IMG/VR virus record: IMGVR_UViG_3300031993_000012
Span: 118,216-182,215 of that record
Strand: one strand, 5' to 3'
DNA: 64,000 nucleotides
Origin: a virus
Lineage: Duplodnaviria; Caudoviricetes
The position numbers and the translations under genes were made by a program. Of this stretch, positions 6,981 through 58,023 are shown piece by piece (position 1 is the first letter of the stretch; each line of letters begins with the position of its first letter). The notes beneath the pieces were generated by a model that was not told where the DNA came from, made no database searches, and was given only the letters and a program-made list of their open reading frames with translations.

Positions 6981-7454
6981 TTATATGTATATTTTCTTTG
7001 AATAAAGATTATTCAATTGATCATATGATATACCGATGATGACCTTATGAGTCTGTGACCCAATTGCAATACGTTCCGTACCAGTAATCTGTATGAGTAA
7101 CGCAGGCTGAGATTCCAGTTCATCCATCATACAATCGATTGTTATACCAGTTAATGATATACGATTACATTGTTCTTCGATTTGTGCTTTAATGGTTTTT
7201 GGTACCATATGATCATCAGCATATTTATGTAAGTACGATTCAATATCAATTCCAAGTTCCGGTATTGATGGATACTGACCGGGTTTCATGAATAACAATG
7301 CTTGAACAATATTTACACACATTTCAAACGTTGATAATACTTTTGGTTTGTATGCGGTATCATAATCAAGTGCAACATCATATCCAAGAGTCTGTACGGA
7401 TGATGGATATTTCTTATTGATTTCTTGGAGCGTGATTCCTACTTCGTCTAACAT
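6981..7454 (-). CDS. gp25/GPW-like baseplate wedge (sheath initiator) protein
   Basis: LLFMKPGQYPSIPELGIDIESYL matches the gp25-family L.T..GE....P.FG pattern; 157 aa. Confidence 0.7.
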   Translation of the reverse strand: MLDEVGITLQEINKKYPSSVQTLGYDVALDYDTAYKPKVLSTFEMCVNIVQALLFMKPGQYPSIPELGIDIESYLHKYADDHMVPKTIKAQIEEQCNRISLTGITIDCMMDELESQPALLIQITGTERIAIGSQTHKVIIGISYDQLNNLYSKKIYI

Positions 7455-8605: not shown

Positions 8606-9133
8606 ATGAGAGTAAATATCGTGGGTAAAGGTGTATGCCCTGTACTGGGAATAATACTGCCTGTGACTAATGTTGATGTAACCGATGGAGTTCTGGAGAC
8701 ACTTATAAAGACACGTAATATCCGAGTATTTGACGTGATGACAGGTGTTCAAGTTACAACACGTAACTACAAGAATTTCCTCATGAGAAGAACTGTCGCT
8801 GCAGTTGCACAGACAGCCGCACCTATTGAACCAGTTAAGGTTCCCGCAACAAAGGTTGAAAAGAAGAAGAAGTCTACAAAGAAACAGGTAGACGAGGTTC
8901 CTGCAACTGTAGAAGCTGTACCGGAAACTGTTCCTGAGGAAACTCCTTCTGAAACCGTTGAAACCACCAAGGAAACATACGAAACTCCGGTGGTTGAAAC
9001 TGTGCCTGAAGTATCGGAAGAATCAGTTGATACAACAGAAGAAACAACCGACGAAACATCAGATTCATCAACTGATACTGATACAACGGAGTCAACCAAC
9101 AATTACTCATCAAAGAAAAAGAAGAGAAAGTAA
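8606..9133 (+). CDS. Hypothetical protein with T/E-rich disordered tail and terminal polybasic KKKKRK
   Basis: ORF with a late-promoter motif at 8546 and a terminator at 9137-9160. Confidence 0.7.
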   Translation: MRVNIVGKGVCPVLGIILPVTNVDVTDGVLETLIKTRNIRVFDVMTGVQVTTRNYKNFLMRRTVAAVAQTAAPIEPVKVPATKVEKKKKSTKKQVDEVPATVEAVPETVPEETPSETVETTKETYETPVVETVPEVSEESVDTTEETTDETSDSSTDTDTTESTNNYSSKKKKRK

Positions 9134-9216
9134 TATGGAGGCGGGTATATCCCGCCTTCTACTTTTTATTGTTTGAAAAACCGATTCGTAATCTTATATT
9201 TAAAGGAGGTTACACA

Positions 9217-10407
9217 ATGGATTTCATTGATGAAAGTTATTTCGGTATAGATGAAGCAATGTCATTCATTCAAGAATCAAATGATTCTACAATGAGATTA
9301 CGTGCAGAAATCATTGAACCGATTATGAAAACATTGGATACCAAAAAAGGTTCTGATGAATATTTGAAATTCGGTACTGAATTCATTGAAGCAAATGCGG
9401 ATATGTTAGCACGTGAATTTCCAACAAAACGTGTTTCATTCCCAAAGAAATACGTTGATAATATTCTTGGTGTATTCGGATTTGAATTGGAGTCGTTTAA
9501 GAAAACAATCAAATCTTTATGTGAAGATATTAATGGTAGTGATTTCAAAACAATCATTGCAACACCAACGAATATTATTCACGCAATCGTTTTGTTTTAT
9601 TCCGACATGACATTCAATCGTTATGTTCGTGATTCTGCACGTCAACAATTGGCATTAACCGTATATCATGTTATGTTCAATAAATTTTATCATGGATTGC
9701 CTGATGAAAAAGTAATGGCTTACACGTATATGCATCTTAATAGAAACTGGGATATTGTTAAAGCCGAAGATATGATGACATGGATTTCTGATAAAGTTGA
9801 TTCTGCATACGCGTTTTATAAAACACAACTTACCATCAATACAACGATGAAAACAATCGTTATGTTTTTAAATCGTGTACGTACTCAGATACGTCAAGCA
9901 ATGCAACAATTGGCAAATGTTTATTACAAGAATCAAACCGAAGGAAATCGTGTAAACGAAGATGCTGAAACTGGTCAACATGAATATATCGTAACTGATG
10001 ATACTTCGCAAATACGTAATAAATTGATGCAATTGATGAAACGTGGTGACTCTTTGTATACAACCGAGAGTAATTTGTATACCGGGGTGGCGAAATTGAA
10101 AAACGTTTCTTCAAAAGCATTATACGAATTGGCACAGAAAGTTTCTCATCGTGATATTGGTGAATTGATTGATTTGATATTCTATGTATTCATTGTAAAG
10201 GAAGGACATAAAATTGAAGAAATAAATTCGTCTGTATATATCGGTGAGATTACCAATTTACCAACGAAGGTTGATCGTTGTATTCCCGGTAAACCAATCG
10301 TTGCTCCATACGTAAAAAAGTATGGTGTTAAAAAAGAATTGATTGTCGCATACATATGTTTGATTGCAACATGGATAATGATGCGAATCAATGATGTTAC
10401 TAAATAA
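9217..10407 (+). CDS. Hypothetical late (probably virion) protein
   Basis: SD AAAGGAGG, late motif at 9179, acidic N-terminal leader ending FIQES. Confidence 0.65.
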   Translation: MDFIDESYFGIDEAMSFIQESNDSTMRLRAEIIEPIMKTLDTKKGSDEYLKFGTEFIEANADMLAREFPTKRVSFPKKYVDNILGVFGFELESFKKTIKSLCEDINGSDFKTIIATPTNIIHAIVLFYSDMTFNRYVRDSARQQLALTVYHVMFNKFYHGLPDEKVMAYTYMHLNRNWDIVKAEDMMTWISDKVDSAYAFYKTQLTINTTMKTIVMFLNRVRTQIRQAMQQLANVYYKNQTEGNRVNEDAETGQHEYIVTDDTSQIRNKLMQLMKRGDSLYTTESNLYTGVAKLKNVSSKALYELAQKVSHRDIGELIDLIFYVFIVKEGHKIEEINSSVYIGEITNLPTKVDRCIPGKPIVAPYVKKYGVKKELIVAYICLIATWIMMRINDVTK

Positions 10408-10421
10408 AAGGAGGTCTTATT

Positions 10422-12206
10422 ATGCCAGACAATCCAAGAATGCTTGGAGACTTATTCCCTGCAACCGGTGATGGTGAAGGTCGTGGTGTCATTGATGCTA
10501 ATGATCTTAATGTGTATGATTATGCATTGGCAAATAATTGTGCACGTACTTTCATTGATTATCAGGAAGGACAAAAAGTTCCAATCGATGTAAAGAATGG
10601 CGGTATCATTCCCGAGCAAGCTGCTGTTGCATCATTACATCAGAATGGTTTTGTTTCCGGTGTTGATCGTTATCTGTTAAAGAAATATATTGATAAACAG
10701 GATAAACCCACTGGATACAATGTACAAACATTTATCGCAGAATTAGATGCTCAAGAAATCATTCCACCTGTTGATCCTGAAGTTAAAACATTGGATGAAT
10801 ACCGTGATGATGTTACTGATCATATTCTCGATCTTAAAGTATATCAGGCTGATGTTATGCTTACATTACAAACCATTTCTGCTAAGAGTCTCAATGATAT
10901 GTGGGAGAAATCACAACGTCTTTGGGGTGAAGCATATAGAATGGATTATGATACAATCGCTCAGCTCGATGCTGATATGAATGCTGGTATTGACGCTACA
11001 TATGAGCATGCCGATGACAGTGGATGGAAAGCTGGTCAACCGGATATTCTTTCCAGTATCAAAACAATCATTGGTACACCGGAAGATGGTCTTAATAAAG
11101 CACAATGTGAAGAAATCCGTGATAAGTATTGGACTCCAACTGCGATAACATTCTCAGATCCACCAACACAAGAAGAGCGTGACAAGTTGGTTAAACGTTT
11201 GATCAGTATACCAGTATCAGAAGGTGTTGACTTTTATGATACATATAAGAATGCCGAACACAGTGGCGGTGGTGGCGATGATCCTGGTGAGTCACTCGTA
11301 CCTGCTGATCCCGAAACTGCACCTGCAGCTTCTGGTGATCTCGCAACGTTCATTTCCAACTGTTCATCTACATATCAAACCACATTCAACAATACTATCA
11401 CATCATCACACCCGAATCAGATTATCACACTCAAAGGCAATGGTGGCTCAGATGCAATTCTTAACTGCTATGAAGTCAGTGGTGGCACATGGACTGCTGT
11501 ATCTGGATTAACGAATGTTGCAGCAAAGGTTGGTGAAGCTGGAATTAAACCAGTCAGTGAAGTTCGTGAAAATCATTACAACACAAGCAGAACTCCCGCC
11601 GGAGCATGGCGACTTGGTAACTGGTCTACATGCGCTGATGATATTGGTGCTTTCGGTAAAGAAACACGTACTGGTTTGAAAATCAATTATAAGAAACTCG
11701 AAGCAACTATGCATTGGATTGACGCAGGTAATTCACCACAGCAACAAGTTGAATCATATCCATCATGGTATAATACATTCTTCGATACTGCTCAAAATCC
11801 ATTCCATCTTATACAATGGAAACGTGCTGACTGGGCTACCAGTGTTTTCTATAAAAGTGATAAAACCACAACTATATCTGGTGCGGATACAGCATTCGAT
11901 TATGGTAAATATTATGCAAATTTCAGTGGTGTTTCTACCAATGCTACCGAACGTTTGTATGATTATGTGGATACATCATATAGAAATGCAATCGTTATTC
12001 GTTTTAATATGCCACCACATGTACAGAAACCAATTACACCAGATGAAGGAGCTGGTGCTGGTTCTGCATACTTCCTCCATAGTTCGAACAACGATTCTAC
12101 ACCTGCTGCAACCGGAGGATGTGTATCTGTACACAATGACAAAATGATTGCAATATTGAACTGGATCGATCGTACGAAGAGTCCATTCATATTCATCGGC
12201 TTATAA
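10422..12206 (+). CDS. Degenerate dockerin-like N-terminus plus C-terminal L,D-transpeptidase (YkuD)-like domain
   Basis: N-terminus LGDL...GVIDANDL...QAAVASLHQNGFVSGVDRYLLKKYI. C-terminus RTPAG...YRNAIVIRFN...GAGSAYFLHSSNNDSTPAATGGCVSV...ILNWID, with the catalytic H...TxGC motif. Confidence 0.7.
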   Translation: MPDNPRMLGDLFPATGDGEGRGVIDANDLNVYDYALANNCARTFIDYQEGQKVPIDVKNGGIIPEQAAVASLHQNGFVSGVDRYLLKKYIDKQDKPTGYNVQTFIAELDAQEIIPPVDPEVKTLDEYRDDVTDHILDLKVYQADVMLTLQTISAKSLNDMWEKSQRLWGEAYRMDYDTIAQLDADMNAGIDATYEHADDSGWKAGQPDILSSIKTIIGTPEDGLNKAQCEEIRDKYWTPTAITFSDPPTQEERDKLVKRLISIPVSEGVDFYDTYKNAEHSGGGGDDPGESLVPADPETAPAASGDLATFISNCSSTYQTTFNNTITSSHPNQIITLKGNGGSDAILNCYEVSGGTWTAVSGLTNVAAKVGEAGIKPVSEVRENHYNTSRTPAGAWRLGNWSTCADDIGAFGKETRTGLKINYKKLEATMHWIDAGNSPQQQVESYPSWYNTFFDTAQNPFHLIQWKRADWATSVFYKSDKTTTISGADTAFDYGKYYANFSGVSTNATERLYDYVDTSYRNAIVIRFNMPPHVQKPITPDEGAGAGSAYFLHSSNNDSTPAATGGCVSVHNDKMIAILNWIDRTKSPFIFIGL

Positions 12207-12222
12207 TTAGGAGGTGATTTAT

Positions 12223-12663
12223 ATGCCGAGACTGTTAGGAGATTTCAACAATGACGGTATGGTTGACAGTAGAGATGGTACAGATATACTAACATATCTC
12301 AGCCAGGTTAGCATGTGTCGTGAGGCAGATCCATCCAGAACCGAAGAGGATATTGAAGCTGGTGATGTTATGCGTAACAGCGAACTTTCTAACCAAGATA
12401 GATATGCGATATCAAAAGCATATGCAATCATGAGTACATACAACCGTGTATATCCTAAAACTCAACCTGCAAACTGGACTGATACTGGTGCAGATGGATA
12501 TAAGAAATATTGGTATGTTAATGAACAAGGTGAAGAAGTTTCATTGGCAGACGAACCATCTGCTCCAACATTTGAATCAAAAAAATACTTTTACAAGATA
12601 ACTGGAGTTGGTGATTTACTTGGTGATGATCCAGTAGCCGCTTTAGTTACTCATTTGCCGTAA
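12223..12663 (+). CDS. Type I dockerin-like domain protein with a phage structural-type aromatic repeat
   Basis: LGDFNNDGMVDSRDGTDILTYL...EAGDVMRNSELSNQDRYAISKAYAIMST forms two Ca-loop/helix segments of a dockerin, followed by TQPANW...YKKYWY...APTFESKKYFYK. Confidence 0.75.
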   Translation: MPRLLGDFNNDGMVDSRDGTDILTYLSQVSMCREADPSRTEEDIEAGDVMRNSELSNQDRYAISKAYAIMSTYNRVYPKTQPANWTDTGADGYKKYWYVNEQGEEVSLADEPSAPTFESKKYFYKITGVGDLLGDDPVAALVTHLP

Positions 12664-12749
12664 CAGCCAGATAATTCCATCAACTCAAACATTCCTGATT
12701 ACAGCCGTCGGAACCTCCTTTGATCTGTTGGTGGGATTTCAATATATAC

Positions 12750-12770
12750 ACCCGGGGTTAATCCCCGGGT
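12750..12770 (+). terminator. Hairpin terminator ACCCGGGG-TTAAT-CCCCGGGT followed by a T-rich tract
   Basis: Inverted repeat after the dockerin operon. Confidence 0.7.
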
Positions 12771-12859
12771 ATTATATTTTTTTGATTTGTATTTATATCA
12801 TTATCGTGTACAAGAGAACTCATTTGTACAAAAATTTATTTCAATAGGAGGTTACGTTT

Positions 12860-13537
12860 ATGGGCGTACAGAATGACAGTAATTTTGAAGGAAGTGTATT
12901 TGAGAAATCATTAAACTTCCATAATGAAAACAAATCCATTGATGCTAAACTGTGTGAGTTACCACCATCAAATGGCGAATGGCATCGGTATATCGATGAA
13001 AACATCGTTCCAACAAATCCTGCTTATACCGGTGAGAAAATTGTTGATGATAATAATGAACGGCCTTCGAAGGTTGAATATTATTTAAATATTGCAACGG
13101 TTGTTTCATCACGTTCAACATGTATCCGTAGAAAGTTCGGTGCTGTTATTGTTAAAGATGATACAATAATTGCAACTGGTTACAATGGTGCACCACGTGG
13201 TCGTATAAACTGTTGTGCGTTAGGCACATGTTTCCGAAAAGAAAATAATATTCCCGCAGGTAAAATGTATGAAGCATGTCGTAGTTCACATGCTGAAATG
13301 AATGCAATTATGAACGCGGATCCAAATCGTCGTAAAGGAGCGACATTGTATTTGGTTGGTGTTGAAATGGATGGTTCATTCACAGAAGCAGATTGTTGTT
13401 CAATGTGTAAACGATTAATTCTTAATTCCGGAATAACAAAAATAGTATTCCGTACTAAGAACAAAAGCGTTAGAACCGTCGTTGTTCAGGAATGGATTGA
13501 AAACGATGATTCATTAACAATTCATGAGGGTTATTAA
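12860..13537 (+). CDS. dCMP deaminase (ComEB-like)
   Basis: RSTC..RKFGAVIVKD..IIATGYNGAP, HAEMNAI, CCSMCKRLILNSGI. Confidence 0.93.
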   Translation: MGVQNDSNFEGSVFEKSLNFHNENKSIDAKLCELPPSNGEWHRYIDENIVPTNPAYTGEKIVDDNNERPSKVEYYLNIATVVSSRSTCIRRKFGAVIVKDDTIIATGYNGAPRGRINCCALGTCFRKENNIPAGKMYEACRSSHAEMNAIMNADPNRRKGATLYLVGVEMDGSFTEADCCSMCKRLILNSGITKIVFRTKNKSVRTVVVQEWIENDDSLTIHEGY

Positions 13538-15575
13538 TATGAATAAATTTGAACAATATTTGATCGATAATAGTATCGAAACAATTGGCACACCACCACC
13601 GGATTTACGTAAAGAATTTCCGGAAGGTGCAGTATTATTCGATGTGCGTTATCGTAAACGTCCAAACGAATCATTCGAAGTGGTTTACTTAGACCCAGAA
13701 ACAAAACGTTTGGAAGTTAAATATATTGCACCAATCGTCGATATATGGTTCACACGTGAAGATTATCGATATACATTAGATGGATTCTGTGTTGATCAAT
13801 ATTTCCGTAATAAAATGCGTGAACAACATAAACCTGATGATGCATATCAAATGCCACAAATCAAAATCAAACATGCATATCGTGTATTCTGTAAAGTTTC
13901 ACAAATTCCGAAAATGATATATGAACATGCTGGAAATGCGAAAATGTATTCTGAAGATGGTTCACATCTGATTGATATGACATATAAGGAATATTATGAA
14001 CAGAATTGCGATGCACTTTATCATCCTGATTTCCAGAAACGTATGTGTCAGAATCCATGGTCATATAAATGTGATTTCCAACCAGATGCATATTTCCGCA
14101 TTCGTTGGTTACATGAATTCACAGATACTTGCGATGTGTCCAAGGTAACCGCGGGATTTATCGATATTGAGATCGATGTTATTGATTATCAACCGGATCT
14201 TGGTAATCCGTATGATGTTCGTACGAATGTAAATACGGTTACATCAATATATCCACATGATAAAATCGTATATGTTGATTTGTTGGAACCGCGTAAAAAG
14301 TTAAATGGTAAAACACCGGAAGAACAAAAACATTTCGATGAATTATGTAAACAACAACAAATCGAATATGATTGGATTAAATCGCATCAAGAAGAATTCA
14401 TTCAAATGATTTTGGGTAATCCATCCAATAATAATTGTCCGGTTCATATTGATGCAGATGATGATAATCTGAAATATCTGGAAGGTTATGATGTCAAATT
14501 ATTATTCTGGGAATCAGATAATAGAATATCATTTGGTGGTGCGGAAGCACGTTTAATCAATTCCGTATATGAACATGCAAACAAACATCGACCAATGTTC
14601 GTATTCGCATGGAATGCACCATTCGATTTTAATTATCTTCCGAATCGTGCACAATGGTTGGGTTATGATCCAATTGATATCGTGGTTCCGCAAATATTCA
14701 AATCAAAAGAATATCGTTTCAGTAAAGATAACTCGGATAATTTCAGTATGAAAACAAACCGAGATTGGTTCTATGCATCAACATATTCTCAATACTTATG
14801 TCAGGAACGTTTGTATGCAGCCATCAGAAAATCACAATCTGAAGAACCATCGTATCGTTTAAATGCAATTGGTAAAAAGGTTGCAAAGATTGAAAAGTTA
14901 ACCGATACTAAGAGTGGTATATTCCGTGAGTTTGCATACACTGATTATATCAAATTCATATTATATAATATCCGTGACGTTGTTGTACAAGTTGCAATTG
15001 AAACCAAAGTAAACGATGCACAAACATTGTATTCACGTGCATATACATTCTCAACGGCGTATTCAAAATGTTTCCAAGAAACTCACATTGTGCGTAATTC
15101 CAAAGACCAATTGTTTGAAGAATTCGGATATGTAATGTCGAATCGTGCGGTAATTGATCGTACAATTGATGGTGCATTCAAAGGAGCATATGTTGCAGAT
15201 CCAGCAAAGAACAAACCAACTGGATTGGTTGCATCTGGACGTGCTTATAGTAGTATTATATATGGTGCGTCGGATTTGGATGCTGCAGCAATGTACCCGA
15301 ATCAAAAGATGGCATATAATAAAGACAAATTGTCGTTGTTGTATAAATGTCGAATTGATAATGATTTATTCCGTAATAAATATTGTCACAATAATTCATA
15401 TAATCAAGAATACATCTGGAAAGATTCTAAAGGAAATGAACATGAAGAGGATATGGCTGGACCAATCATGAATTCATTCAAGAATCACAATTATATGTCA
15501 TTGACATCCAATTGGTTTGGTGTACCGGTTATAACCGATATAATCCAATCGGTACGTAAAGAGTTAGTAATTTAA
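13524..15575 (+). CDS. Family B DNA polymerase, N-terminal part (3'-5' exonuclease plus motif A) of a split enzyme
   Basis: ExoI FIDIEID, ExoII AWNAPFDFNY, ExoIII YNIRDV, FKGAYVADP and motif A DLDAAAMYPN. No KxxxNSxYG or DTDS before the stop. Confidence 0.85.
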   Translation: MRVINMNKFEQYLIDNSIETIGTPPPDLRKEFPEGAVLFDVRYRKRPNESFEVVYLDPETKRLEVKYIAPIVDIWFTREDYRYTLDGFCVDQYFRNKMREQHKPDDAYQMPQIKIKHAYRVFCKVSQIPKMIYEHAGNAKMYSEDGSHLIDMTYKEYYEQNCDALYHPDFQKRMCQNPWSYKCDFQPDAYFRIRWLHEFTDTCDVSKVTAGFIDIEIDVIDYQPDLGNPYDVRTNVNTVTSIYPHDKIVYVDLLEPRKKLNGKTPEEQKHFDELCKQQQIEYDWIKSHQEEFIQMILGNPSNNNCPVHIDADDDNLKYLEGYDVKLLFWESDNRISFGGAEARLINSVYEHANKHRPMFVFAWNAPFDFNYLPNRAQWLGYDPIDIVVPQIFKSKEYRFSKDNSDNFSMKTNRDWFYASTYSQYLCQERLYAAIRKSQSEEPSYRLNAIGKKVAKIEKLTDTKSGIFREFAYTDYIKFILYNIRDVVVQVAIETKVNDAQTLYSRAYTFSTAYSKCFQETHIVRNSKDQLFEEFGYVMSNRAVIDRTIDGAFKGAYVADPAKNKPTGLVASGRAYSSIIYGASDLDAAAMYPNQKMAYNKDKLSLLYKCRIDNDLFRNKYCHNNSYNQEYIWKDSKGNEHEEDMAGPIMNSFKNHNYMSLTSNWFGVPVITDIIQSVRKELVI

Positions 15576-15580
15576 TCGAT

Positions 15581-15604
15581 GAATGGCGGGAATTCCCGCC
15601 ATTC
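15581..15604. terminator. Palindromic hairpin GAATGGCGGGAATTCCCGCCATTC
   Basis: Perfect inverted repeat right after the polymerase stop. Confidence 0.7.
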
Positions 15605-15670
15605 GTGATATATATTATATATGAGGCAACAGGTATGTAGCTTTTTAAATATAGGAGGTTGTATAACACA

Positions 15671-17983
15671 ATGAATGGCGATTTATATGTACCGATTAAA
15701 GATGAAGAATACGGAAATCCAAATATGACTCAATCTGATTTTGGTGAATTAGCAAAACGATATTATTGTTTATATGGTATCAATGTCAATTTAGCCAGAG
15801 CAATTCCAGCATTGGTTGATGGTTTGAAACCAATCCATCGTCGTATATTGTATACCGTTTATAATAATTATCGTAAAGAACAATTCACTGTTGGTTCTGC
15901 AGTTGGTGATGTATTACACTTATCGCCCCATGGCGATCTTGGCTTAAGCCAGGTATTTGCATCAATGGCACAAGATTTCTCAAATAATGTACCATATCTG
16001 GATACATCAGATGGTGGTAACTCAGGTAATGCGGTTAATGGTAACGATGCAGCGTCACCAAGATATCTTCAAATGAATGTATCTGAGTTCACGTTAGATG
16101 TATTCTTCAGCGAGTTTGATAAAAAGGTTAACATGATTCCATCATATGATGGTAAAACCGTTGAACCAGTTTCATTACCCGCAAAGATACCAACGATTCT
16201 GTTGAATGGTAGTTGTGGTATTGGTTTAGGATATGCAACTGATATTCCACCATATAATCTGAATGAAGTAATTAATGCGACAATCAAGTTGATTAAGAAT
16301 CCAGATGCAAAGATTAAATTGATTCCAGATTCACCAACCGGATGTGATATTATCATTCTTGATAATGAACATTTCATGTTCCAATCATCATTTGAAATTG
16401 ATAATCGTAATTATGAAATCATTTTCAAGAATACTCCATATGGTGAATATTTGGATGACATCAGAGATCGTTTGAATGAAATCCAGGATTCGACAAATCC
16501 GATTCCGGAAATATTATCTGGTGATGATGAATCTCAATTGATTGAAGGTAAAATCAGATACGTAGTTAGATGTAGACCATGTAACCTTTATCAGGTTTTG
16601 AATAAACTGTTTAAACGTGTATCCGGTTTCCGTAGTAACGTTTCATCGACAAACATGTTAGTCGTTGAACCCAATTTCAAAATGAAAGACATGAATGTCA
16701 AACAGATATTATTGTCATGGATAAATAATCGTGTAATGGAAAAACGTGCATGGTTACAACGTCAATTGATTATGCAGACACAACTGTTCAATCAGAATGT
16801 TGGTAAAGCATTTATGTTATCACCAAAGAATCTGAATACCACTATCAAATTATGTCGTCAAGGCAGTGATGAAGAAGAAACCATTCAGTTATTGGTTAAA
16901 CATTATAAACCTGATGTATCATCATCACAGGCGAAGTTAGTTGCAGAAGTTCCATTACATAAATTATCCATTAAACGTTACGAAGAAACAGTTGCAGAAA
17001 TCAATAAAATCAAAACTGAAATTGAACGTTTACGCAATATCATATCCACACCGGAGAATATCAAAGATGAAATCATCAAAGATATGGAAAAGATAAAAGA
17101 AAAATATGGATATCCACGTCGTAGTACAATACTTAATACTGGTGAAAAGGAAGTTGTCAATGTTGGTGTTGTTCAAACATTAACCGACGGAAGTGTAATA
17201 TTCTCTGAAACTGAGAATCCTGAGCATTTGTCATCTGATGTAATTCCAATCAATGGTACAGCTGTATGTTTGATTGATGATAAAGCAGGATATGTTTGGG
17301 TTGATACAACAAAAGTTCCACATGATAAACCAATCACAATGACATCAGTTGGTCGTGGTGGTGCCATGGGAAAATGTATATCAGTTGTATCAAATCCATC
17401 AAACAATATTGTGTTGTTATCCAATAGAGGCAGAATCAAGTATATGCCAATATCCAGAATACCTTCTAATACTGCAAGGAAACCGTTGGTGAAATTGGAT
17501 AATGATGAATATATTGTATCTGCGTTAGAGGTTCCAGATGCATTAACGGATATATTGATATACACAAATGATGGTCAGGGCAAGCGTATCCAGACAACTG
17601 ATTTGAATAAAGTAATGTCAGTTGATGCAAATGGACAGTTCATTATAAATGGATATGAAGTTGCAGGAATGTTCTGTGTTAATTCGAATAAACCATTCTT
17701 GGCATATGTAACGAAACTCGGGAGAATTAGAATCAATCATTCGAAATTCTTAACAGCAACCAAGAAGTTTGGTGAATGCAAACCAATAATCAAACTGTCA
17801 CCACAAGATGATTTAGCAGCTGTATTTTGCGTTGATAAATCGCAGAAGTTGACATTACATCATGCCGACAGTAGAGTATCTACAGTTAACATTGAATCAT
17901 TACCAGTATTAACAATGGCAGCTCCGCCAGAAAGACCAAAACACGTATATGGAGTTAAAGTTGTACGTGTAACATTGCAATGA
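15671..17983 (+). CDS. gyrA: Type IIA topoisomerase/DNA gyrase subunit A
   Basis: RAIPALVDGLKPIHRRILY, SPHGD, catalytic ASPRY, PVSLPAKIPTILLNGSCGIGLGYATDIPPYNLNEV, and a degenerate C-terminal pinwheel. Confidence 0.92.
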   Translation: MNGDLYVPIKDEEYGNPNMTQSDFGELAKRYYCLYGINVNLARAIPALVDGLKPIHRRILYTVYNNYRKEQFTVGSAVGDVLHLSPHGDLGLSQVFASMAQDFSNNVPYLDTSDGGNSGNAVNGNDAASPRYLQMNVSEFTLDVFFSEFDKKVNMIPSYDGKTVEPVSLPAKIPTILLNGSCGIGLGYATDIPPYNLNEVINATIKLIKNPDAKIKLIPDSPTGCDIIILDNEHFMFQSSFEIDNRNYEIIFKNTPYGEYLDDIRDRLNEIQDSTNPIPEILSGDDESQLIEGKIRYVVRCRPCNLYQVLNKLFKRVSGFRSNVSSTNMLVVEPNFKMKDMNVKQILLSWINNRVMEKRAWLQRQLIMQTQLFNQNVGKAFMLSPKNLNTTIKLCRQGSDEEETIQLLVKHYKPDVSSSQAKLVAEVPLHKLSIKRYEETVAEINKIKTEIERLRNIISTPENIKDEIIKDMEKIKEKYGYPRRSTILNTGEKEVVNVGVVQTLTDGSVIFSETENPEHLSSDVIPINGTAVCLIDDKAGYVWVDTTKVPHDKPITMTSVGRGGAMGKCISVVSNPSNNIVLLSNRGRIKYMPISRIPSNTARKPLVKLDNDEYIVSALEVPDALTDILIYTNDGQGKRIQTTDLNKVMSVDANGQFIINGYEVAGMFCVNSNKPFLAYVTKLGRIRINHSKFLTATKKFGECKPIIKLSPQDDLAAVFCVDKSQKLTLHHADSRVSTVNIESLPVLTMAAPPERPKHVYGVKVVRVTLQ

Positions 17984-21310: not shown

Positions 21311-21531
21311 CCTTGTTATATATCTATAATTTCAAAAAACGATATATATATCATTATTATGGTCTGAGGAAAAGATGTTTTCATATATACGGACTGGTAA
21401 GTCAACCTTGGTACGCAAAGGCACTTATCAGAAAATATATATGAAACTCCGTATCTGATGACCGTCGGCATTTGTACCCAAGATGCCATCCCAACAAAAT
21501 TTTCAATACACATAAAAGGATGGTAATTAAA

Positions 21532-22272
21532 ATGAAAAAGGTTAATGTTAAAGTTTATCTGGAATTCATCGCATTGGTACTTATGACAATCTCATTTGTC
21601 AGCGGTTGTTGCAAAGTTGGAAAAGGAGCAAGAATTCATGTGACTGACGAATTGGTCAAGAGTGAAGCTAATGTTCCGTATCCTGTTATTGCAACAGCAT
21701 TAAGTACCTCGGTTGTACAGATAACTTACACTACCGAGGGTACATTCGGTATTCAGACAACAGAAACATCAGTAGAAGAATTAAGTGAAACTACTACTGA
21801 GGTTCAAGAAGCAGAGAATATCGCTGTACCTATTTCATACGCCGATCACACGAATATCGAGAATGACATGAATGTCGACGTTACGGAAATGTCATTCGAA
21901 CCTAACGACTATGGATACTATCCATCTGTAGCAAATGGCTACATAACAGAAGAGGAACGTATATTCCTCTGTAACACGGTTGGAACCGAATGGGGTTCTG
22001 ATTGGGTAAGCTTGTACGATAAAGCAATGGTGGTCGATACTGTAATGACCAGAGTCGAGGAAGGCTGTTGGACAAACGGACTGGAATCAACTGTTTACAA
22101 CGTATTGACTGCTCCTAATCAATATAACCCCGAATATGCAGAGCCGTGGTATCACGATAACGTGACACAGTCATGCATTGATGCTGTGGAGTATTACTTC
22201 CAGCATCGCGATGATTTTCCGCATTACACATCTTTCTACGGAGATGGTGTGGAGAATCATTTCTATAACTAA
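21532..22272 (+). CDS. Exported/lipoprotein-like SleB-type (Hydrolase_2) cell wall hydrolase
   Basis: Signal peptide ending FVSGC, T/E-rich linker, then FLCNTVGTEWG...AMVVDTVMTRV...TVYNVLTAPNQY. Confidence 0.7.
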   Translation: MKKVNVKVYLEFIALVLMTISFVSGCCKVGKGARIHVTDELVKSEANVPYPVIATALSTSVVQITYTTEGTFGIQTTETSVEELSETTTEVQEAENIAVPISYADHTNIENDMNVDVTEMSFEPNDYGYYPSVANGYITEEERIFLCNTVGTEWGSDWVSLYDKAMVVDTVMTRVEEGCWTNGLESTVYNVLTAPNQYNPEYAEPWYHDNVTQSCIDAVEYYFQHRDDFPHYTSFYGDGVENHFYN

Positions 22273-32236: not shown

Positions 32237-32373
32237 ATACTCACATCCTTTCGTTATTTTTATCGATGAGTTGAAACCTAATGTATACTAGAATTTGGCA
32301 ATTCTACATATATATTATTCTTATGGACAGATGCGAGAGTATTTGTTACATTATAATTGAAAGGAATTCATAT

Positions 32374-40431: not shown

Positions 40432-42249
40432 TTAATATTCAATGTATGTATATGACGATGGAGACGGATAATTGGTTTTTGTTGTGTATGCTGTCAATGT
40501 TCCTGATGGTACATAAATAATACAATCAGTTGGAACACCTGTCCATGCAGCACTGCTAGAGACAGTCGGTGGAGTTGTTGAAGTAAATTTGATCGATCCC
40601 AATCCATAACAATACTGGAAAGCATAACTACCAATACTAGTAACTCCATCAGGTATTGTAATAGATTGTAATGAAAAACAATACTGGAAAGCATTACTAT
40701 CAATACTAGTAGCTCCATCAGGTATTGTTATTGATGTTAATGAAGTACAATTTTGGAAAGTGTATTGACCAATACTAGTAACTCCATCAGGTATTGTAAT
40801 AGATTGTAATGAATAACAACTATTGAAAGCATAATTACCAATACTAGTAACTGAGTTAGGTATTGTAATAGATTGTAATGAATAACAATACTGGAAAGCA
40901 TAACTACCAATACTAGTAACTCCATCAGGAATAGTAATAGATGATAATGAAAAACAATAATTGAAAGCACTCTGACCAATACTAGTAACTGTATCAGGAA
41001 TAATGATTGAGGTTAATGATCTACAACTAGCAAAAGCATTACCACCAATACTAGTAACTCCATCAGGTATTGTTACAGATGTCATTGAAGAACAATCACT
41101 GAAAGCACTACCACTAATACTAGTAACTCCATCAGGTATTGTAATAGATTGTAATGAATAACAACTATTGAAAGCATAATTACCAATACTAGTAGCTCCA
41201 TCAGGTATTGTTATTGATGTTAATGAAGTACAATTTTGGAAAGTGTATTGACCAATACTAGTAACTGAATCAGGTATTGTGATAGATTGTAATGAATAAC
41301 AACCTTGGAAAGCATAATTACCAATACTAGTAACTGAATCAGGTATTGTGATAGATTGTAATGAATAACAATACTGGAATGCTCTACCACCAAAACTAAC
41401 ATTATTACCAATCTCAATACTAATCAATGAATTCTGATATACTCTATCATTATTCACATTTGGAGATGAGGATTTCCTAAGTATATTAGAATAATAGCTA
41501 CTATCACCATTCAATGTAATACTACCAGTTGTTACTGAAATGGATATAGTATACTCCCCTGCAGATGTATATTCATGAGGTGTATACACTGTAGAAGTAT
41601 TTAATGTAACACTCTCAACTGTACTACCATCACCCCAGTCTATTGATACGGTAGTGCCACTACTATTACCAGTCAATCCCAGATATGGTTTTAATCTTCC
41701 CTCTCCAAGTCTTATGTGTAATCTTGTACTACCATCATCGGTTACATACATCTGACCAATATCAAGTTTTCCATTATTGGTAACATACGTTTTTGCATCA
41801 GCAAAACTCAAATTCCATCCTTGTGCTGTTAACCCCTCGTGTGAGGGGTTTGATGGCATTTCTGTTAATGCCAAGAATTCATCTTTTGTATATGAATATA
41901 ATACAGAACCATCATAATCATAGAAGTTTACTTTACTGGAAGCTCCCTTGTAGCCAGACAAAATCAATTCCAATATCTCAGCAGTATCACCGATACCATT
42001 TTTGATATCGGTGACATTCGTATTGATTGTGTTGGTAGTTTGTTCAATACCACCAACGGTATTAAGTATTTGGGTCAATACCGGACTTAAATCATCGATA
42101 CTTTGTTGAGCCAATGCAATATTATCCGCATTGGTTTTCATCTGTGTATCGATTGTATCCATATTGGCTGTGATGACGGACATATCGAAATTGTCATTCG
42201 GATCTGTTTGTTTTCCTAAATTGTAATTAGGTGTGTATGTTGTAGCCAA
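40432..42249 (-). CDS. BspA-type (LRR_5) leucine-rich-repeat fibre protein, 12 repeats
   Basis: 23-aa units SIGxxAFxxCxSLxSITIPDxVT, a DWGDG PKD-like domain and a MATTYTPNY N-terminus. Confidence 0.9.
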   Translation of the reverse strand: MATTYTPNYNLGKQTDPNDNFDMSVITANMDTIDTQMKTNADNIALAQQSIDDLSPVLTQILNTVGGIEQTTNTINTNVTDIKNGIGDTAEILELILSGYKGASSKVNFYDYDGSVLYSYTKDEFLALTEMPSNPSHEGLTAQGWNLSFADAKTYVTNNGKLDIGQMYVTDDGSTRLHIRLGEGRLKPYLGLTGNSSGTTVSIDWGDGSTVESVTLNTSTVYTPHEYTSAGEYTISISVTTGSITLNGDSSYYSNILRKSSSPNVNNDRVYQNSLISIEIGNNVSFGGRAFQYCYSLQSITIPDSVTSIGNYAFQGCYSLQSITIPDSVTSIGQYTFQNCTSLTSITIPDGATSIGNYAFNSCYSLQSITIPDGVTSISGSAFSDCSSMTSVTIPDGVTSIGGNAFASCRSLTSIIIPDTVTSIGQSAFNYCFSLSSITIPDGVTSIGSYAFQYCYSLQSITIPNSVTSIGNYAFNSCYSLQSITIPDGVTSIGQYTFQNCTSLTSITIPDGATSIDSNAFQYCFSLQSITIPDGVTSIGSYAFQYCYGLGSIKFTSTTPPTVSSSAAWTGVPTDCIIYVPSGTLTAYTTKTNYPSPSSYTYIEY

Positions 42250-44026
42250 TGTATTCTCCCTCCATTTCTTTTATTTTCTTTGATTGTAAATCACTGATCT
42301 TAAGTGTCTGTGACCAATCAATCGATGGATTCAATATCCAACGATTATTCTTGTATACTTTTGCACGCCGGAGTGCATTGTATGTGATGTCGAGTTTCGA
42401 CGGTTTGATTTGTGTATCGGTGGTAATATCATTCTGACCGTATGTGGTTGGAATGTTGGAACTGTATGTGACAGAATCTGCATAATCACCAATTTTCATG
42501 AGTGGTTCATTGAGTGTGGTTGTTTGTGGTGTTGCTAATACGTAATACACGGTAACGGGTGTTCCCGCTTGATACTGTTGTTGGAGATATTGTTTGAACG
42601 TTGTTTCATCATTGAATGATGTATCGCATATTATTAAACGATTATTAGTATTATAAAAACCAACAGTACCATTCAAAAATGACGCCGAACCGGATGCATT
42701 TGCGGTACCAATATAATGTGTACATACGGTAATCATACCATTTTTCATATAACCAGTGACCGTTGTCCAGAATTTACTACCAGTCAGATAAGTCCACGTT
42801 TCATTACCAGTCAATACCAACTTTTGAATTTGTCTGATGGATTGAAATGTTCCAAGATAAATGTTTGTTATCTGAGAATCAATGTCTAAACCAACTTTAT
42901 ATCCATACGGTTCATATGGTAATGATGATGAACCTATGTTAAACATGAAACGATTGTCCAGATTTTCACTGTAACCGGTGAAATTTATGATACAATAAAC
43001 AGCATTTGCTGGAGATGTATCTGATAAAGAATACTCTGGTATAGTAAGTGTATCCATCGTTTTACGTGAAATCAACTGTTTTGTATTATCAAACCAATTT
43101 ATTGCGATTGTATTAGCAACATGCGCTGTACCATAACATGTATACGTATACGTAGTATTTGGTATTATAGCGATGTAATCGGTGTGATTAAGTCTACTTG
43201 GACCCGAGGCGGTTGTATCGGTTTCAATACCACTGGAGTTAATATATTTTCCAATAGTAGCAGTTGACAAATCGAATAGATTCCTACTAACATCACCAAC
43301 ACCAGTTACATCAACCGGATCAGTTGGAGTAGGAGTTCCATTCTGTACAGTATTACCATATACAGTACAAGAATCAATTCCATCTCCTTGAGAGAATACT
43401 GTTGATGGAATCGGTGATAATGTTTCATTCACACCGTATTGACGATACATGATTTCGTTCCACATATCAACCGAATCACACGATGTTGGGTATATTGGAT
43501 TCTGTGGAGTTGGTGTACTATCTTGAATCAAGTATCCTTCGATAATACCACTCAAACCTTCAGGAACAGTAACTGTTTCAGTTGTTGGTTCTGCCAATAC
43601 ATACCAGATGGTTACTGGATGTCCTGCTTGATATTCGCTTCTAAGATATTCTTTGAAACCATTTATATTGTTACCAAGCGATTGTGCATTCATTATATCT
43701 TTTCCGAAATTCATATAAATAACATTATATGAATTTACTGAATTTATTGCAACTGTAGATGTTGGAGCGGCTGTTGAATATGGTAATCGATCACATATTA
43801 CTATATTATTTGGAGATAGATTTTCTGAAATATAATTATTCCAAATATAATATAAATAATTATTATCATTAGGACTTGAGTTTTTATTAAACGATTCGTC
43901 ACCAGTTAATTCAACTTTACCGATTCGGTGTGTTAGCTCCCCCGTGTGTAAATTCAATTCATCTTTAACATTACCAATTGCATATAATGATACAGGTAAT
44001 GTTAAATTTGATCGTTGTTTAATCAT
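42227..44026 (-). CDS. Tail fibre-associated protein sharing modules with the DGR target
   Basis: VQNGTPTP, LPYEPYGYK, KLVLTG, YLQQQYQAGTPVTVYYVLATPQTTTLNEPLMKIGDY. Confidence 0.75.
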   Translation of the reverse strand: MIKQRSNLTLPVSLYAIGNVKDELNLHTGELTHRIGKVELTGDESFNKNSSPNDNNYLYYIWNNYISENLSPNNIVICDRLPYSTAAPTSTVAINSVNSYNVIYMNFGKDIMNAQSLGNNINGFKEYLRSEYQAGHPVTIWYVLAEPTTETVTVPEGLSGIIEGYLIQDSTPTPQNPIYPTSCDSVDMWNEIMYRQYGVNETLSPIPSTVFSQGDGIDSCTVYGNTVQNGTPTPTDPVDVTGVGDVSRNLFDLSTATIGKYINSSGIETDTTASGPSRLNHTDYIAIIPNTTYTYTCYGTAHVANTIAINWFDNTKQLISRKTMDTLTIPEYSLSDTSPANAVYCIINFTGYSENLDNRFMFNIGSSSLPYEPYGYKVGLDIDSQITNIYLGTFQSIRQIQKLVLTGNETWTYLTGSKFWTTVTGYMKNGMITVCTHYIGTANASGSASFLNGTVGFYNTNNRLIICDTSFNDETTFKQYLQQQYQAGTPVTVYYVLATPQTTTLNEPLMKIGDYADSVTYSSNIPTTYGQNDITTDTQIKPSKLDITYNALRRAKVYKNNRWILNPSIDWSQTLKISDLQSKKIKEMEGEYIGYNIHT

Positions 44027-44041
44027 TATATATCACCCCGA

Positions 44042-44974
44042 TCAGAATCCAAATCCGATTGAACCCACTGGAATATCACCCGTTGGTTCCGTTAATGATG
44101 TATACTGACGAACTCCGTTTACCACGATATAATTTGGACCCGATCCAATACCACTGTCTTTTACAGTTTTTCCATTTGCACCAAATGCAACCAGATTATT
44201 TTCAGTAGTACCGGACGCAAGTCCGGGAATTGCATTATCAATTTTTGCAACTTCTTCTGCATTGATTCCACTGTTGATTGCAGCCCATTGTTCAGTAGTA
44301 AATGATGTATTGTTAACATCATATTCATATGCCCAATGTGAATTGTCAATTGGTGGATCAACCCATTTATATCGTTCATAATGGTTTACTGTGTCATCTT
44401 GTTCATACCATGTATCTGCAGCCCACACATCACTACTCTCACCGGGAACGTATTTCCCATCGACGAGTTTATAGTATTCTGTCGGGTCGAATGATGCAGG
44501 CTCTTCGGTAAGTAATGTATAATTGTATACAATCAGAAATGCATAGTCATTATTATCTGCTTGAACGGCATCCATTTCTGCTTTGGTTTCATACGTACCT
44601 TTGAATTCTGCCGTTGATGATTCAATGGATTGATTGACATAATTTGTGATTGTTGAGTTTGCGATTGGGTTCATTGATGTCAATGAAGTTTCAGTATCGG
44701 TCATTTGTTGAACGATTTCCTGTACTTCTTCAGGATCAACTCCACCACCACCTTCATCCGGGAAGTAATCAGTGATGTTAGCACCACTGATTACGTCGCC
44801 AGTAACAGCATCGGTTACCCAATACTGAGGAAACTGAATAAGTTGTAAGAGTTGTTCGCGATTGACATAAACGTTTGTTGCTGGATTCGGTACTCCAATA
44901 ACCGCAATACGTTTTGGGTTTAATGGTGGTACCGATTTATCAACAACATTAATCAGTACTGTATCGACTGCCAT
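44042..44974 (-). CDS. Tail-associated structural protein
   Basis: N-terminal ~75 aa shared with 46831..48894; FTTEQWAAINSGI; terminal PTGDIPVGSI. Confidence 0.65.
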   Translation of the reverse strand: MAVDTVLINVVDKSVPPLNPKRIAVIGVPNPATNVYVNREQLLQLIQFPQYWVTDAVTGDVISGANITDYFPDEGGGGVDPEEVQEIVQQMTDTETSLTSMNPIANSTITNYVNQSIESSTAEFKGTYETKAEMDAVQADNNDYAFLIVYNYTLLTEEPASFDPTEYYKLVDGKYVPGESSDVWAADTWYEQDDTVNHYERYKWVDPPIDNSHWAYEYDVNNTSFTTEQWAAINSGINAEEVAKIDNAIPGLASGTTENNLVAFGANGKTVKDSGIGSGPNYIVVNGVRQYTSLTEPTGDIPVGSIGFGF

Positions 44975-44980
44975 TTATAA

Positions 44981-45253
44981 TCACTCCTCTGATTCTGGGG
45001 TTGTTGGTGTTACGGGAATATTTGGTATCATCGGAGGAATCATTCCGGGAATACCGAACTGTGGTTGCTGTGGTTCCTCTGGCGGTTCGGGATGCTCAAT
45101 CGGAACATCGGTTTCTTCGTATGTATACTTACACGGTATGATATCTACGGCATCCTCGTATAATGCACCTGTTTCTACCTGTTTGATCATAACGTCCTGA
45201 TCTGAATAACGACGCTCGCGAGTCTCGTTATCTACTAATTCTACAATAATCAT
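44981..45253 (-). CDS. Small acidic/Pro-rich protein after an LRR fibre (possible assembly chaperone)
   Basis: SD GAGGAGG; RRYSD...QVETGALYEDAVD...YTYEETD. Confidence 0.55.
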   Translation of the reverse strand: MIIVELVDNETRERRYSDQDVMIKQVETGALYEDAVDIIPCKYTYEETDVPIEHPEPPEEPQQPQFGIPGMIPPMIPNIPVTPTTPESEE

Positions 45254-45270
45254 ATTTGATTACCTCCTCT

Positions 45271-46815
45271 TTAATATTCGATATATGTGTATGACGACGA
45301 TGATGGGTAATTCGTCGCGGATGTATATGCTGATAATGAACCTGATGGAACATAAATTTTGCATGTTGTTGGAACATTTTGCCATGCATTACTGCTGGAA
45401 ACAGTTGGCGGAGTTGTTGATTTGAATTTGATTGATTCCATGTATGAACAACCACTGAAAGCACTACCACCAATTGTAGTAACTCCAGAGCCAATTGTAA
45501 TTGATGATAATGAAGAACAACTACTGAAAGCACTACCACCAATACTAGTAACTCCATTAGGTATAGTAATTGATGTTAATGAATAACAATTACTGAAAGC
45601 ACTACCACCAATACTAGTAACTGTATCAGGTATTGTAATTGATTGTAATGAATAACAATTATTGAAAGCATTACTACCAATACTAGTAACTGTATCAGGT
45701 ATAGTAATTGATGTTAATGAATAACAATTAGTGAAAGCACTACCACCAATACTAGTAACTCCATTAGGTATAGTGATTGATGATAATGCATAACAACTAC
45801 TAAAAACACTACTACTAATACTAGTAACTGTATCAGGTATAGTAATTGATGTTAATGAATAACAATTAGTGAAAGCACTACTATCAATACTAGTAACTGT
45901 ATCAGGAATAGTAATTGATGTTAATGAAAAACAATTAGTGAAAGCACTACTATCAATACTACTTATTCCAGTACCAATCTCAATTTTCTTTATTGAATTA
46001 TTATACGCTCTATCAGGTGAACTAGCATTATTATTTCCATTCCATAAGATACCGGATACAGATGTAGTAGACGATTGTAATACAAAACTACCAGATGTTA
46101 CAGTAATAGCTATTACATAATCTCCTGGTGTAGCATATTCATGTCTCTCACTCTTATATCCAGCAGTCGTGGAAGTAAACGTACTGTGAGAACCACCATC
46201 ACCCCAATCGATATCAAGTTCACTATTAGCATTAAGATACAACTGAAGTATTGGGCTAATGCGCCCTTCAGTAAGAGTTATATATAACCTGGTCTTTCCA
46301 TCATCGGTCATATACATCTGTCCGATGTTCAATGAACCATTTGCAGTTACATATGTTTTAGCATCAGCGAGACTGTAATTCCATCCTTGAGCCGTAAGCC
46401 CCTCGTGTGAGGGGTTTGATGGCATTTCTGTCAATGCGATGAATTCATCCTTTGTATATGATGCAGCGACCGTTCCATCATAATCATAGAATGTTACTTT
46501 ACTGGAAGCACCAGCATAACCGTCCAATATCAAATCCAATATTTCGTTTGTGTCTCCGAGCTTCCCATCGACATTAGTTACGTTGGAATTTATACTGGTT
46601 GTATTCTGTTGGATTGCTGATACCGTATTCAGGATCTGATTCAATATTGGAGTGATGTCTGTGACAACACCACGTGTATTCGCAATATTATCAGCAGTTC
46701 TTTTCATCTGGGTATCGATTGCATCCATATTGTCAGTAATCGTATCCATATTGAATAAATCCTTTGGATCTTCCTGTTTACCCAAATCATAATTGGGTGT
46801 ATATGTCGTTGCCAT
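45271..46815 (-). CDS. BspA-type LRR fibre protein, 8 repeats; paralog of 40432..42249
   Basis: Same N-terminus, FYDYDG...EMPSNPSHEGLTAQGWN block, LRR units and C-terminal cap. Confidence 0.9.
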   Translation of the reverse strand: MATTYTPNYDLGKQEDPKDLFNMDTITDNMDAIDTQMKRTADNIANTRGVVTDITPILNQILNTVSAIQQNTTSINSNVTNVDGKLGDTNEILDLILDGYAGASSKVTFYDYDGTVAASYTKDEFIALTEMPSNPSHEGLTAQGWNYSLADAKTYVTANGSLNIGQMYMTDDGKTRLYITLTEGRISPILQLYLNANSELDIDWGDGGSHSTFTSTTAGYKSERHEYATPGDYVIAITVTSGSFVLQSSTTSVSGILWNGNNNASSPDRAYNNSIKKIEIGTGISSIDSSAFTNCFSLTSITIPDTVTSIDSSAFTNCYSLTSITIPDTVTSISSSVFSSCYALSSITIPNGVTSIGGSAFTNCYSLTSITIPDTVTSIGSNAFNNCYSLQSITIPDTVTSIGGSAFSNCYSLTSITIPNGVTSIGGSAFSSCSSLSSITIGSGVTTIGGSAFSGCSYMESIKFKSTTPPTVSSSNAWQNVPTTCKIYVPSGSLSAYTSATNYPSSSSYTYIEY

Positions 46816-46830
46816 TATATCACCTCACTT

Positions 46831-50585: not shown

Positions 50586-50806
50586 CTACTTTCTAAAATA
50601 TAATAAAATGTTACGATGGATTTAGGTCCATCTTATGAATCGGTTTGATTCCTAGAAAATGGAAATTCCATATATATATTATTAATATGAAGAAAGAGTA
50701 AATAATATACTCAATCTTCAGTCAAATTAATCAAAACTTTTAACTGGGGTAACTGGTCTAGTCAACCAGCCTGCAAATTATCTATGCAGGTCCAGGAGGT
50801 AATCTT

Positions 50807-57859: not shown

Positions 57860-58023
57860 GTAGACACTCCTTCCATAGTGTAATTTTATCGTTGGGTTTG
57901 GACTATAATGGTATACTAATATTTCTATATTCTACATATATATTATTCTATTGAATAGAGGACAAACCTAAAAATTTATGGGTAAATATTTATCACAACC
58001 TCTATTCAGAAAGGAGTGTAATT

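Follow-up and report, generated by a model that had tools for sequence, protein, structure and literature searches.

Dockerin modules in two adjacent genes of a rumen jumbo phage, one of them joined to a YkuD-fold domain

On the surface of fibre-degrading Ruminococcus, few protein contacts rival cohesin-dockerin pairs in tightness and specificity, and the bacterial proteins that carry dockerins are secreted. What, then, would a phage do with dockerins of its own? The question is raised by the window analysed here, a stretch of 64,000 nucleotides forming the final 64 kb of the 182-kb viral record IMGVR_UViG_3300031993_000012 (CheckV completeness estimate 68%), in which two adjacent genes encode proteins of 594 and 146 amino acids (aa) that both begin with a dockerin module. 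An earlier note, made from the letters of the sequence, had recognised these modules and suggested that the virion may use them to attach to host cohesins, or to tether a peptidoglycan-remodelling enzyme at the wall. Sequence profiles of both proteins and a fold search with the larger one agree that the two neighbouring genes carry dockerins. The interpretation that we favour, with a probability of roughly one half, is that these dockerins plug into cohesins on the host surface and thereby place a peptidoglycan peptidase and a small second module on the wall from outside.

Dockerin modules of the two proteins

The gene for the 146-aa protein (12223..12663, plus strand) is an open reading frame preceded by the strong Shine-Dalgarno site AGGAGG, and its true start is the ATG at 12223 rather than the GTG at 12214 given in the list of open reading frames. 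Its dockerin occupies residues 1-76 (12223-12450, plus strand) and consists of two tandem calcium-loop/helix segments, of which the first loop has the canonical ligands D7, N9, D11, and D18. The Pfam model Dockerin_1 scored the protein at 22.4 bits in hmmscan and at 23.4 bits in a six-frame search, on either side of the gathering threshold of 22.9, and five of nine homologues carry a precomputed PF00404 match. When a profile of nine homologues was searched against all sequences of the Protein Data Bank (PDB), the first 12 matches were all dockerins, the best being the ScaH dockerin of Ruminococcus flavefaciens (8AJY chain B, E 1.2e-5), and the alignment to the 146-aa protein spans both repeats as well as the helix end YAI-ST. 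In a language-model look-up the protein fell among Bacillota clusters of Dockerin_1.

The remainder of the small protein (residues 77-146, plus strand) is a conserved beta-rich C-terminal module ending in an invariant LVTHLP, and its mean pairwise identity of 68.6% compares with 48.7% for the dockerin. Within the dockerin the calcium ligands are fixed and the highest entropy falls at loop positions 10-11, which in ScaH hold the Gly-Arg recognition pair (PMC5301203). Compared with ScaH, the window protein retains the recognition Arg (S-R instead of G-R) together with the YAI-ST end. In one homologue, the 202-aa P0019, the dockerin is preceded by a further copy of the C-terminal module (YPxxxPxNW...GYK(K/R)YYY), and this module is therefore an independent, portable unit. 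No longer proteins sharing the small dockerin turned up in a dedicated search.

The 594-aa protein is encoded at 10422..12206 (plus strand) by an open reading frame with the strong Shine-Dalgarno site AAAGGAGG ahead of it, and has 13 homologues with 43-80% identity. It was modelled with AlphaFold2 from a 60-sequence alignment, giving a mean predicted local distance difference test score (pLDDT) of 90.4. A Foldseek run with the whole 594-residue model produced only weak matches, both in the PDB (E 0.055 or worse) and in BFVD, and an exhaustive structural search with VIA-align was needed to resolve the domains. In this search residues 6-111 matched 8ajy_D with Z 9.3 over 82 of 84 residues (root-mean-square deviation, rmsd, 3.0) and the Clostridium thermocellum Xyn10B dockerin 2ccl_B with Z 8.2 over 62 of 62 residues (rmsd 2.0), and eight more dockerin entries followed at Z 5.8-7.4. 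The N-terminal dockerin (residues 1-111, 10422..10754, plus strand) has four helices and a beta hairpin, with the loop-helix pairs present and the calcium loops degenerate. A fourth helix, here residues 101-110, has been described as setting group-4 dockerins apart (PMC12270676).

By sequence, Dockerin_1 gave only 12.6 bits on residues ~16-90 of this protein, and four of the 13 homologues matched with E of at most 0.1. Nevertheless, the five best PDB matches to a profile of the N-termini were all dockerins (best E 0.0012), and hhalign related the N-terminus to the dockerin of the 146-aa protein at 68-73% probability. In short-form relatives the first loop reads D-V-N-L-D-G-E-I-x-x-x-D and is fully canonical. 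As in the small protein, the dockerin is the most variable part, with 47.6% mean pairwise identity against 58-61% elsewhere in the protein. The motifs quoted in the earlier note are all present (the starts MPDNPRMLGD and MPRLLGD, GDFNNDGMVDSRD, GDVMRNSELSNQD, ISKAYAIMST, DRY in both proteins, and FLH...TGGCV), and its description of the dockerin at 10422 as the more degenerate one agrees with the 12.6-bit score, with a 7-residue insertion in loop 1, and with a second loop of the form S-x-H-x-N-G.

Group-4 (type III) dockerins of R. flavefaciens have the same two calcium-loop/helix repeats, long linker, and fourth helix, and the ScaH dockerin, bound to ScaE in 8AJY, is both the top sequence match of the 146-aa protein and the top structural match of the 594-aa protein. 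The resemblance to R. flavefaciens-type dockerins that the earlier note had seen in the helix end was thus recovered by two approaches. The phage modules differ from the bacterial ones in being N-terminal and leaderless, whereas bacterial dockerin proteins carry a route out of the cell as secreted proteins, and in the degeneracy of their second loops (Met at position 3 in the small protein, S-x-H-x-N in the large one). In addition, the 594-aa dockerin has a beta-hairpin insertion, and cohesin binding by the phage modules is a prediction. Non-cellulolytic cargo is common to both, as shown by the peptidase-Doc of R. flavefaciens strain FD-1; group-4 dockerins, one of them on a peptidase, bind the wall-anchored cohesin of ScaE (PMC5301203, PMC13463774).

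A YkuD-fold domain behind the larger dockerin

The dockerin of the 594-aa protein is followed by a middle region of two small helical bundles (residues 121-282, 10782..11267, plus strand; pLDDT mostly 88-98). This is the most conserved domain of the protein, with 61% mean pairwise identity, and VIA-align found no convincing known fold for it, all matches being to common helical arrangements with Z no higher than 6.7. The C-terminal half (residues 302-594, 11325..12203, plus strand) is a catalytic domain of YkuD fold, as identified by both Pfam and VIA-align and modelled with pLDDT mostly 88-98. Pfam YkuD (PF03734) scored 24.9 bits on residues 508-584, above the threshold of 23.4, and matches 11 of the 13 homologues. 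More than 1300 YkuD-type proteins match the domain, in two stretches.

The catalytic His/Cys dyad is intact: His553 (12078-12080) and Cys567 (12120-12122) are invariant in the 13 homologues and nearly so across the 60 sequences. They stand 14 residues apart, as in the YkuD family motif [S/T]-H-G-C-h-N, in place of which the phage has T-G-G-C-V-S. The closest structures found by VIA-align were the L,D-carboxypeptidases Csd6 of Helicobacter pylori (4XZZ, Z 12.9), Pgp2 of Campylobacter jejuni (6XJ7, Z 12.7), and Bd1075 (7O21, Z 11.3), ahead of L,D-transpeptidases at Z ~10-11, DpaA at 8.5, and the type VI secretion system (T6SS) effector Tlde1 at 7.7. The fold is shared with these carboxypeptidases and with L,D-transpeptidases such as LdtMt2 and Ldtfm, at only 13-21% sequence identity to YkuD structures, and the phage domain differs from known YkuD enzymes by long insertions between its two conserved halves. 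Judged from the model, trimming or cleavage of stem peptides is the probable reaction of the enzyme, and the fold ranking would favour a carboxypeptidase over a transpeptidase, by a margin of only ~2 Z units. The L,D-transpeptidase-like enzyme of the earlier note is accordingly to be kept as far as the YkuD fold and the conserved His and Cys are concerned, while its nearest structures are L,D-carboxypeptidases.

Known YkuD enzymes are fused to NTF2, peptidoglycan-binding, or Ig-like domains, and the phage one to a dockerin. Bacterial YkuD relatives are also found joined to the wall-targeting modules SLH, CWB2, and SH3b, or to the wall hydrolases CHAP, NlpC/P60, Amidase_3, and M15. In the 594-aa protein, the dockerin takes the position of such a wall-targeting module.

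The profile and structure comparisons that the earlier note had proposed for the two proteins gave a divided outcome. YkuD lies above its threshold, the Dockerin_1 scores of the 146-aa protein (22.4-23.4 bits) bracket the cut-off of 22.9, and the 12.6 bits of the 594-aa protein fall short of it; in structure, the 594-aa protein has a clear dockerin fold at Z 9.3, and the small protein yielded a model of pLDDT 51.6 with Z 3.5 to 8ajy_D.

The gene unit, the phage, and its probable host

The two dockerin genes are preceded on the same strand by a gene for a 396-aa helical protein with a hydrophobic C-terminal end (9217..10407, plus strand; phrog_2921, E 2.6e-11). Intergenic gaps of only 14 and 16 bases separate the three genes, which are bracketed by intrinsic terminators at 9137..9159 (plus strand; 9-bp stem with 7 GC, then a T run), closing the upstream 175-aa gene, and at 12750..12770 (plus strand; 8-bp stem with 7 GC, then a T run). 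Because of these short gaps between bracketing terminators, the three genes form one unit. Ahead of it lies a sigma-70-like promoter match, TTGAAA-16-TATATT (9173..9200, plus strand; 10 of 12 consensus positions), but such matches occur in the region at the frequency expected from shuffled sequence and this one is weak taken singly. The earlier note had placed a late-promoter motif at 9179; the sigma-70-like match is there, and a comparison of upstream motifs gave neither an early nor a late assignment for the unit. Elsewhere in the window, an AT-rich motif resembling AATAATATATATGTAGAAT recurs in intergenic sequence of several regions, among them 57860-58023, 32237-32290, and 50586-50700, and a different motif, TTATAT(T/A), precedes the ribosome-binding site of other genes by 8-12 bases, the dockerin unit among them. 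The two motifs may mark separate promoter classes.

For the 396-aa protein phrog_2921 is the only family match, with none in Pfam, NCBIfam, or the PDB. It is 84-97% identical among relatives whose dockerin proteins share ~40%. Its 19-residue hydropathy peaks at 1.59 (residues 376-394), and the hydrophobic C-terminal end LIVAYICLIATWIMM, which is invariant, is borderline as a membrane segment; apart from this end, no holin-like gene or membrane protein was found in the unit. The 175-aa protein upstream (8606-9133, plus strand) has a long acidic tail rich in Thr, Glu, and Val that ends in KKKKRK, directly followed by the strong terminator. In a module divergent from the dockerin unit, 6981-7454 (minus strand) has a sub-threshold match of 17.3 bits to the baseplate wedge protein gp25, and a weak, likewise sub-threshold match of 18 bits to the SleB-like cell-wall hydrolase family Hydrolase_2 lies at 21472-22272 (plus strand). 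Three consecutive large proteins at 40432-48894 (minus strand) carry BspA-type leucine-rich repeats (LRR) of the LRR_5 family (E 1e-63 to 1e-106), adjoin a 1355-aa tail protein, and may be fibres. Fusions of LRR_5 to dockerins are common in Bacillota according to Atlas rows.

Identical or related proteins sit on contigs of 237-254 kb. Judged by a gene content that comprises a multisubunit RNA polymerase beta-like gene, topoisomerase II, a family-B-like DNA polymerase, a dCMP deaminase, the three BspA-type LRR proteins, and a tail protein, the phage is a phiKZ/AR9-like jumbo phage. The relatives of its dockerin genes derive from the cow-rumen assemblies PRJEB21624 and STEW19, and the phage is of rumen origin.

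The best clue to the host is the canonical endolysin, encoded outside the window (G000:C1:51116-51928, equivalent to L023:1617-2429) and composed of an Amidase_2 domain and a C-terminal stretch of ~70 residues, which looks SH3b-like by eye and has no Pfam match. Residues 1-202 are 67.5% identical (E 6e-91) to endolysins of the Ruminococcus phages NatCom_23091 and NatCom_29429, and the next match, to Faecalibacterium phage Mushu, is at 48%. The two Ruminococcus phages come from human faeces, and no dockerin was found in them. Given this similarity, the strength of the Shine-Dalgarno sites, and the affinity of both the dockerin and the YkuD domain to Bacillota, the host is probably Ruminococcus or another relative in the Oscillospiraceae, which is in line with the jumbo phage of a cellulosome-bearing host envisaged in the earlier note. 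A 41-kb contig with the gene order of the window (CAYYEN010000001.1) is part of a metagenome-assembled genome (MAG) labelled uncultured Spirochaetaceae. A Spirochaetaceae host was considered and rejected: it rests on this single binned contig, the endolysin points to Ruminococcus, and, since the bin has no cohesin and no dockerin outside the phage contig, the contig was probably mis-binned.

Neither megablast with 9000-16000 nor tblastn with the 594-aa, 396-aa, and 146-aa proteins found anything among 50,697 phage records. The two dockerin proteins had no match in PHROGs or NCBIfam and only a 13-bit match in PADLOC, and a search of the 182-kb record with family-specific hidden Markov models (HMMs) yielded no third dockerin. 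A literature search on dockerins in phages, jumbo phages, endolysins, and virions found no description of a natural phage dockerin targeting host cohesins; the nearest precedent is a putative archaeal-virus contig for which dockerin domains are mentioned (PMC13452462). One Atlas cluster of dockerin-domain proteins is half viral, and such genes therefore sit in databases without interpretation.

Docking on the host wall and its alternatives

How could these proteins meet a cohesin? The dockerin begins within ~10 residues of Met1 in 21 of 22 family members, P0019 being the exception, and the 19-residue hydropathy of the two dockerin proteins peaks at 0.93 and 0.75. Since the proteins are leaderless, they would reach cohesins only when borne on a particle or after lysis. 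In the scenario that we favour, a rumen jumbo phage would have acquired Ruminococcus-type, group-4-like dockerins and set them at the N-termini of two cytoplasmic proteins without leaders, which would leave the cell either on the particle or with the burst. Outside, with calcium available, the dockerins would plug into cohesins of the host surface, and docking would bring to the wall a catalytically intact YkuD-fold stem-peptide enzyme, most like L,D-carboxypeptidases, together with the small conserved beta-module. Cohesin-dockerin systems are classically found in ruminococci, whose ScaE cohesin is covalently anchored to peptidoglycan (PMC5301203, PMC13463774). Because cohesins would sit on the outer face of the wall, we favour action from outside over lysis from within.

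The pattern of conservation points in the same direction. The dockerins are variable, and in the 146-aa protein so are loop positions 10-11, yet the calcium ligands of that protein are fixed and the 396-aa neighbour stays 84% identical, as would be expected of a host-facing recognition surface. A YkuD weapon that weakens the wall of another cell from outside the cytoplasm is known from T6SS effectors (Tlde1, 7UMA; Z 7.7 to the phage domain), although these follow another delivery route and no recognisable immunity gene was found in the phage. More tentatively, and with rather less confidence than the docking itself, wall-anchored cohesins of the host may serve as a docking platform on which the phage dockerins act as receptor-binding plugs, one of them delivering a wall-weakening YkuD peptidase to the anchoring point, while the small leaderless dockerin, released in the burst, may mask cohesins on debris and neighbouring cells or displace the cellulosome.

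Several observations weigh against docking on host cohesins. No signal peptide or membrane segment was found in any of the 22 family members. The second loop of the 146-aa protein retains the ligands at positions 1, 5, and 12, with Met at position 3, and the AlphaFold model of this protein is poor (pLDDT 51.6), with 8ajy_D ranked second in the fold search at Z 3.5. In the window copy of the 594-aa protein the 7-residue insertion interrupts loop 1, and loop 2, S71-x-H73-x-N75-G76...D82, is non-canonical; because S71 is invariant and H73 nearly so, it is no standard calcium site. The Dockerin_1 model also matches in eight of 14 control genomes, genomes without a cellulosome among them. The unit adjoins replication genes as well as the weak baseplate-like module, the host assignment leans on a single endolysin domain, and the sole genome bin with a relative is the one labelled Spirochaetaceae, in which there is no cohesin.

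Modular endolysins and virion-associated peptidoglycan hydrolases likewise pair a peptidoglycan-acting domain with a module that targets the host surface, and the 594-aa protein could accordingly be a second lysin that passes through holin lesions and uses its dockerin as a wall-binding domain, the small protein modulating or competing with it. Like canonical endolysins it has no leader peptide, and the viral protein nearest to it in structure carries an endolysin annotation, a weak match at E 2.7e-3. YkuD is a rare catalytic domain among phage lytic proteins, with 10 PhaLP entries (PMC8310338), and has been found in a gut-phage endolysin (PMC13284279), but neither PhaLP nor that gut-phageome survey mentions a dockerin anywhere. 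Moreover, the phage already has its separate Amidase_2 endolysin elsewhere in the genome, the unit has no holin-like gene, and cohesins on the outer wall face would be a poor landmark from inside. In contrast to modular endolysins, the targeting module is N-terminal and predicted to fit a protein socket instead of a wall polymer. We therefore consider a second lysin unlikely. The partner might instead be a cohesin-like protein of the phage itself, so that enzyme and small module would be clipped onto the particle at assembly and no host cohesins would be involved. The search of the rest of the genome for cohesins suggested in the earlier note came back empty, as Pfam Cohesin had no match in the 182-kb record (E up to 10), and none was found in the 166-kb, 25-kb, and 16-kb viral relatives (E up to 1) or in one MAG; completeness of the viral records searched is only 62-68%, and sequence models are known to miss Ruminococcus cohesins (PMC13463774). 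A single Cohesin match of 11.9 bits sits in a DNA polymerase-sized open reading frame and was treated as spurious. While synthesis in the cytoplasm without a leader, a degenerate but conserved S-x-H loop in the 594-aa protein that could fold without calcium, and the position of the unit beside the divergent module with the gp25 match of 17.3 bits would all suit such a clip, the high variability of the dockerins speaks against a conserved phage partner, and we hold this arrangement to be rather improbable.

A partner may also be dispensable altogether, if the modules are dockerin-derived calcium or stability modules whose resemblance to cohesin binders reflects ancestry only. Dockerin-like modules occur widely beyond cellulosomes, and such an origin would agree with the Dockerin_1 matches in the control genomes and with the partial loss of calcium ligands. 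Many dockerins of R. flavefaciens LRR proteins, too, bound no tested cohesin (PMC5301203). However, two different cargoes of one operon carry a dockerin at the same position, and a conserved scaffold with variable surface positions looks like a recognition surface, which makes a module without a partner the least probable of these explanations.

The finding combines a known docking module with a known enzyme fold in an arrangement that is new in being viral, leaderless, and N-terminal. Should wall-anchored cohesins indeed serve these phages as a docking platform, they would offer the first natural example of viral use of the cohesin-dockerin system, and rumen fibre digestion would be tied to predation by phages. 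The cellulosome anchor would then be a phage receptor, and thus a cost of displaying a cellulosome, and this could be part of the reason why ruminococcal cohesins and dockerins are so extremely diversified. A wall enzyme targeted to a protein socket would represent a new type of targeting module for lysins, and the finding offers a way towards the hosts of rumen jumbo phages that are uncultured.

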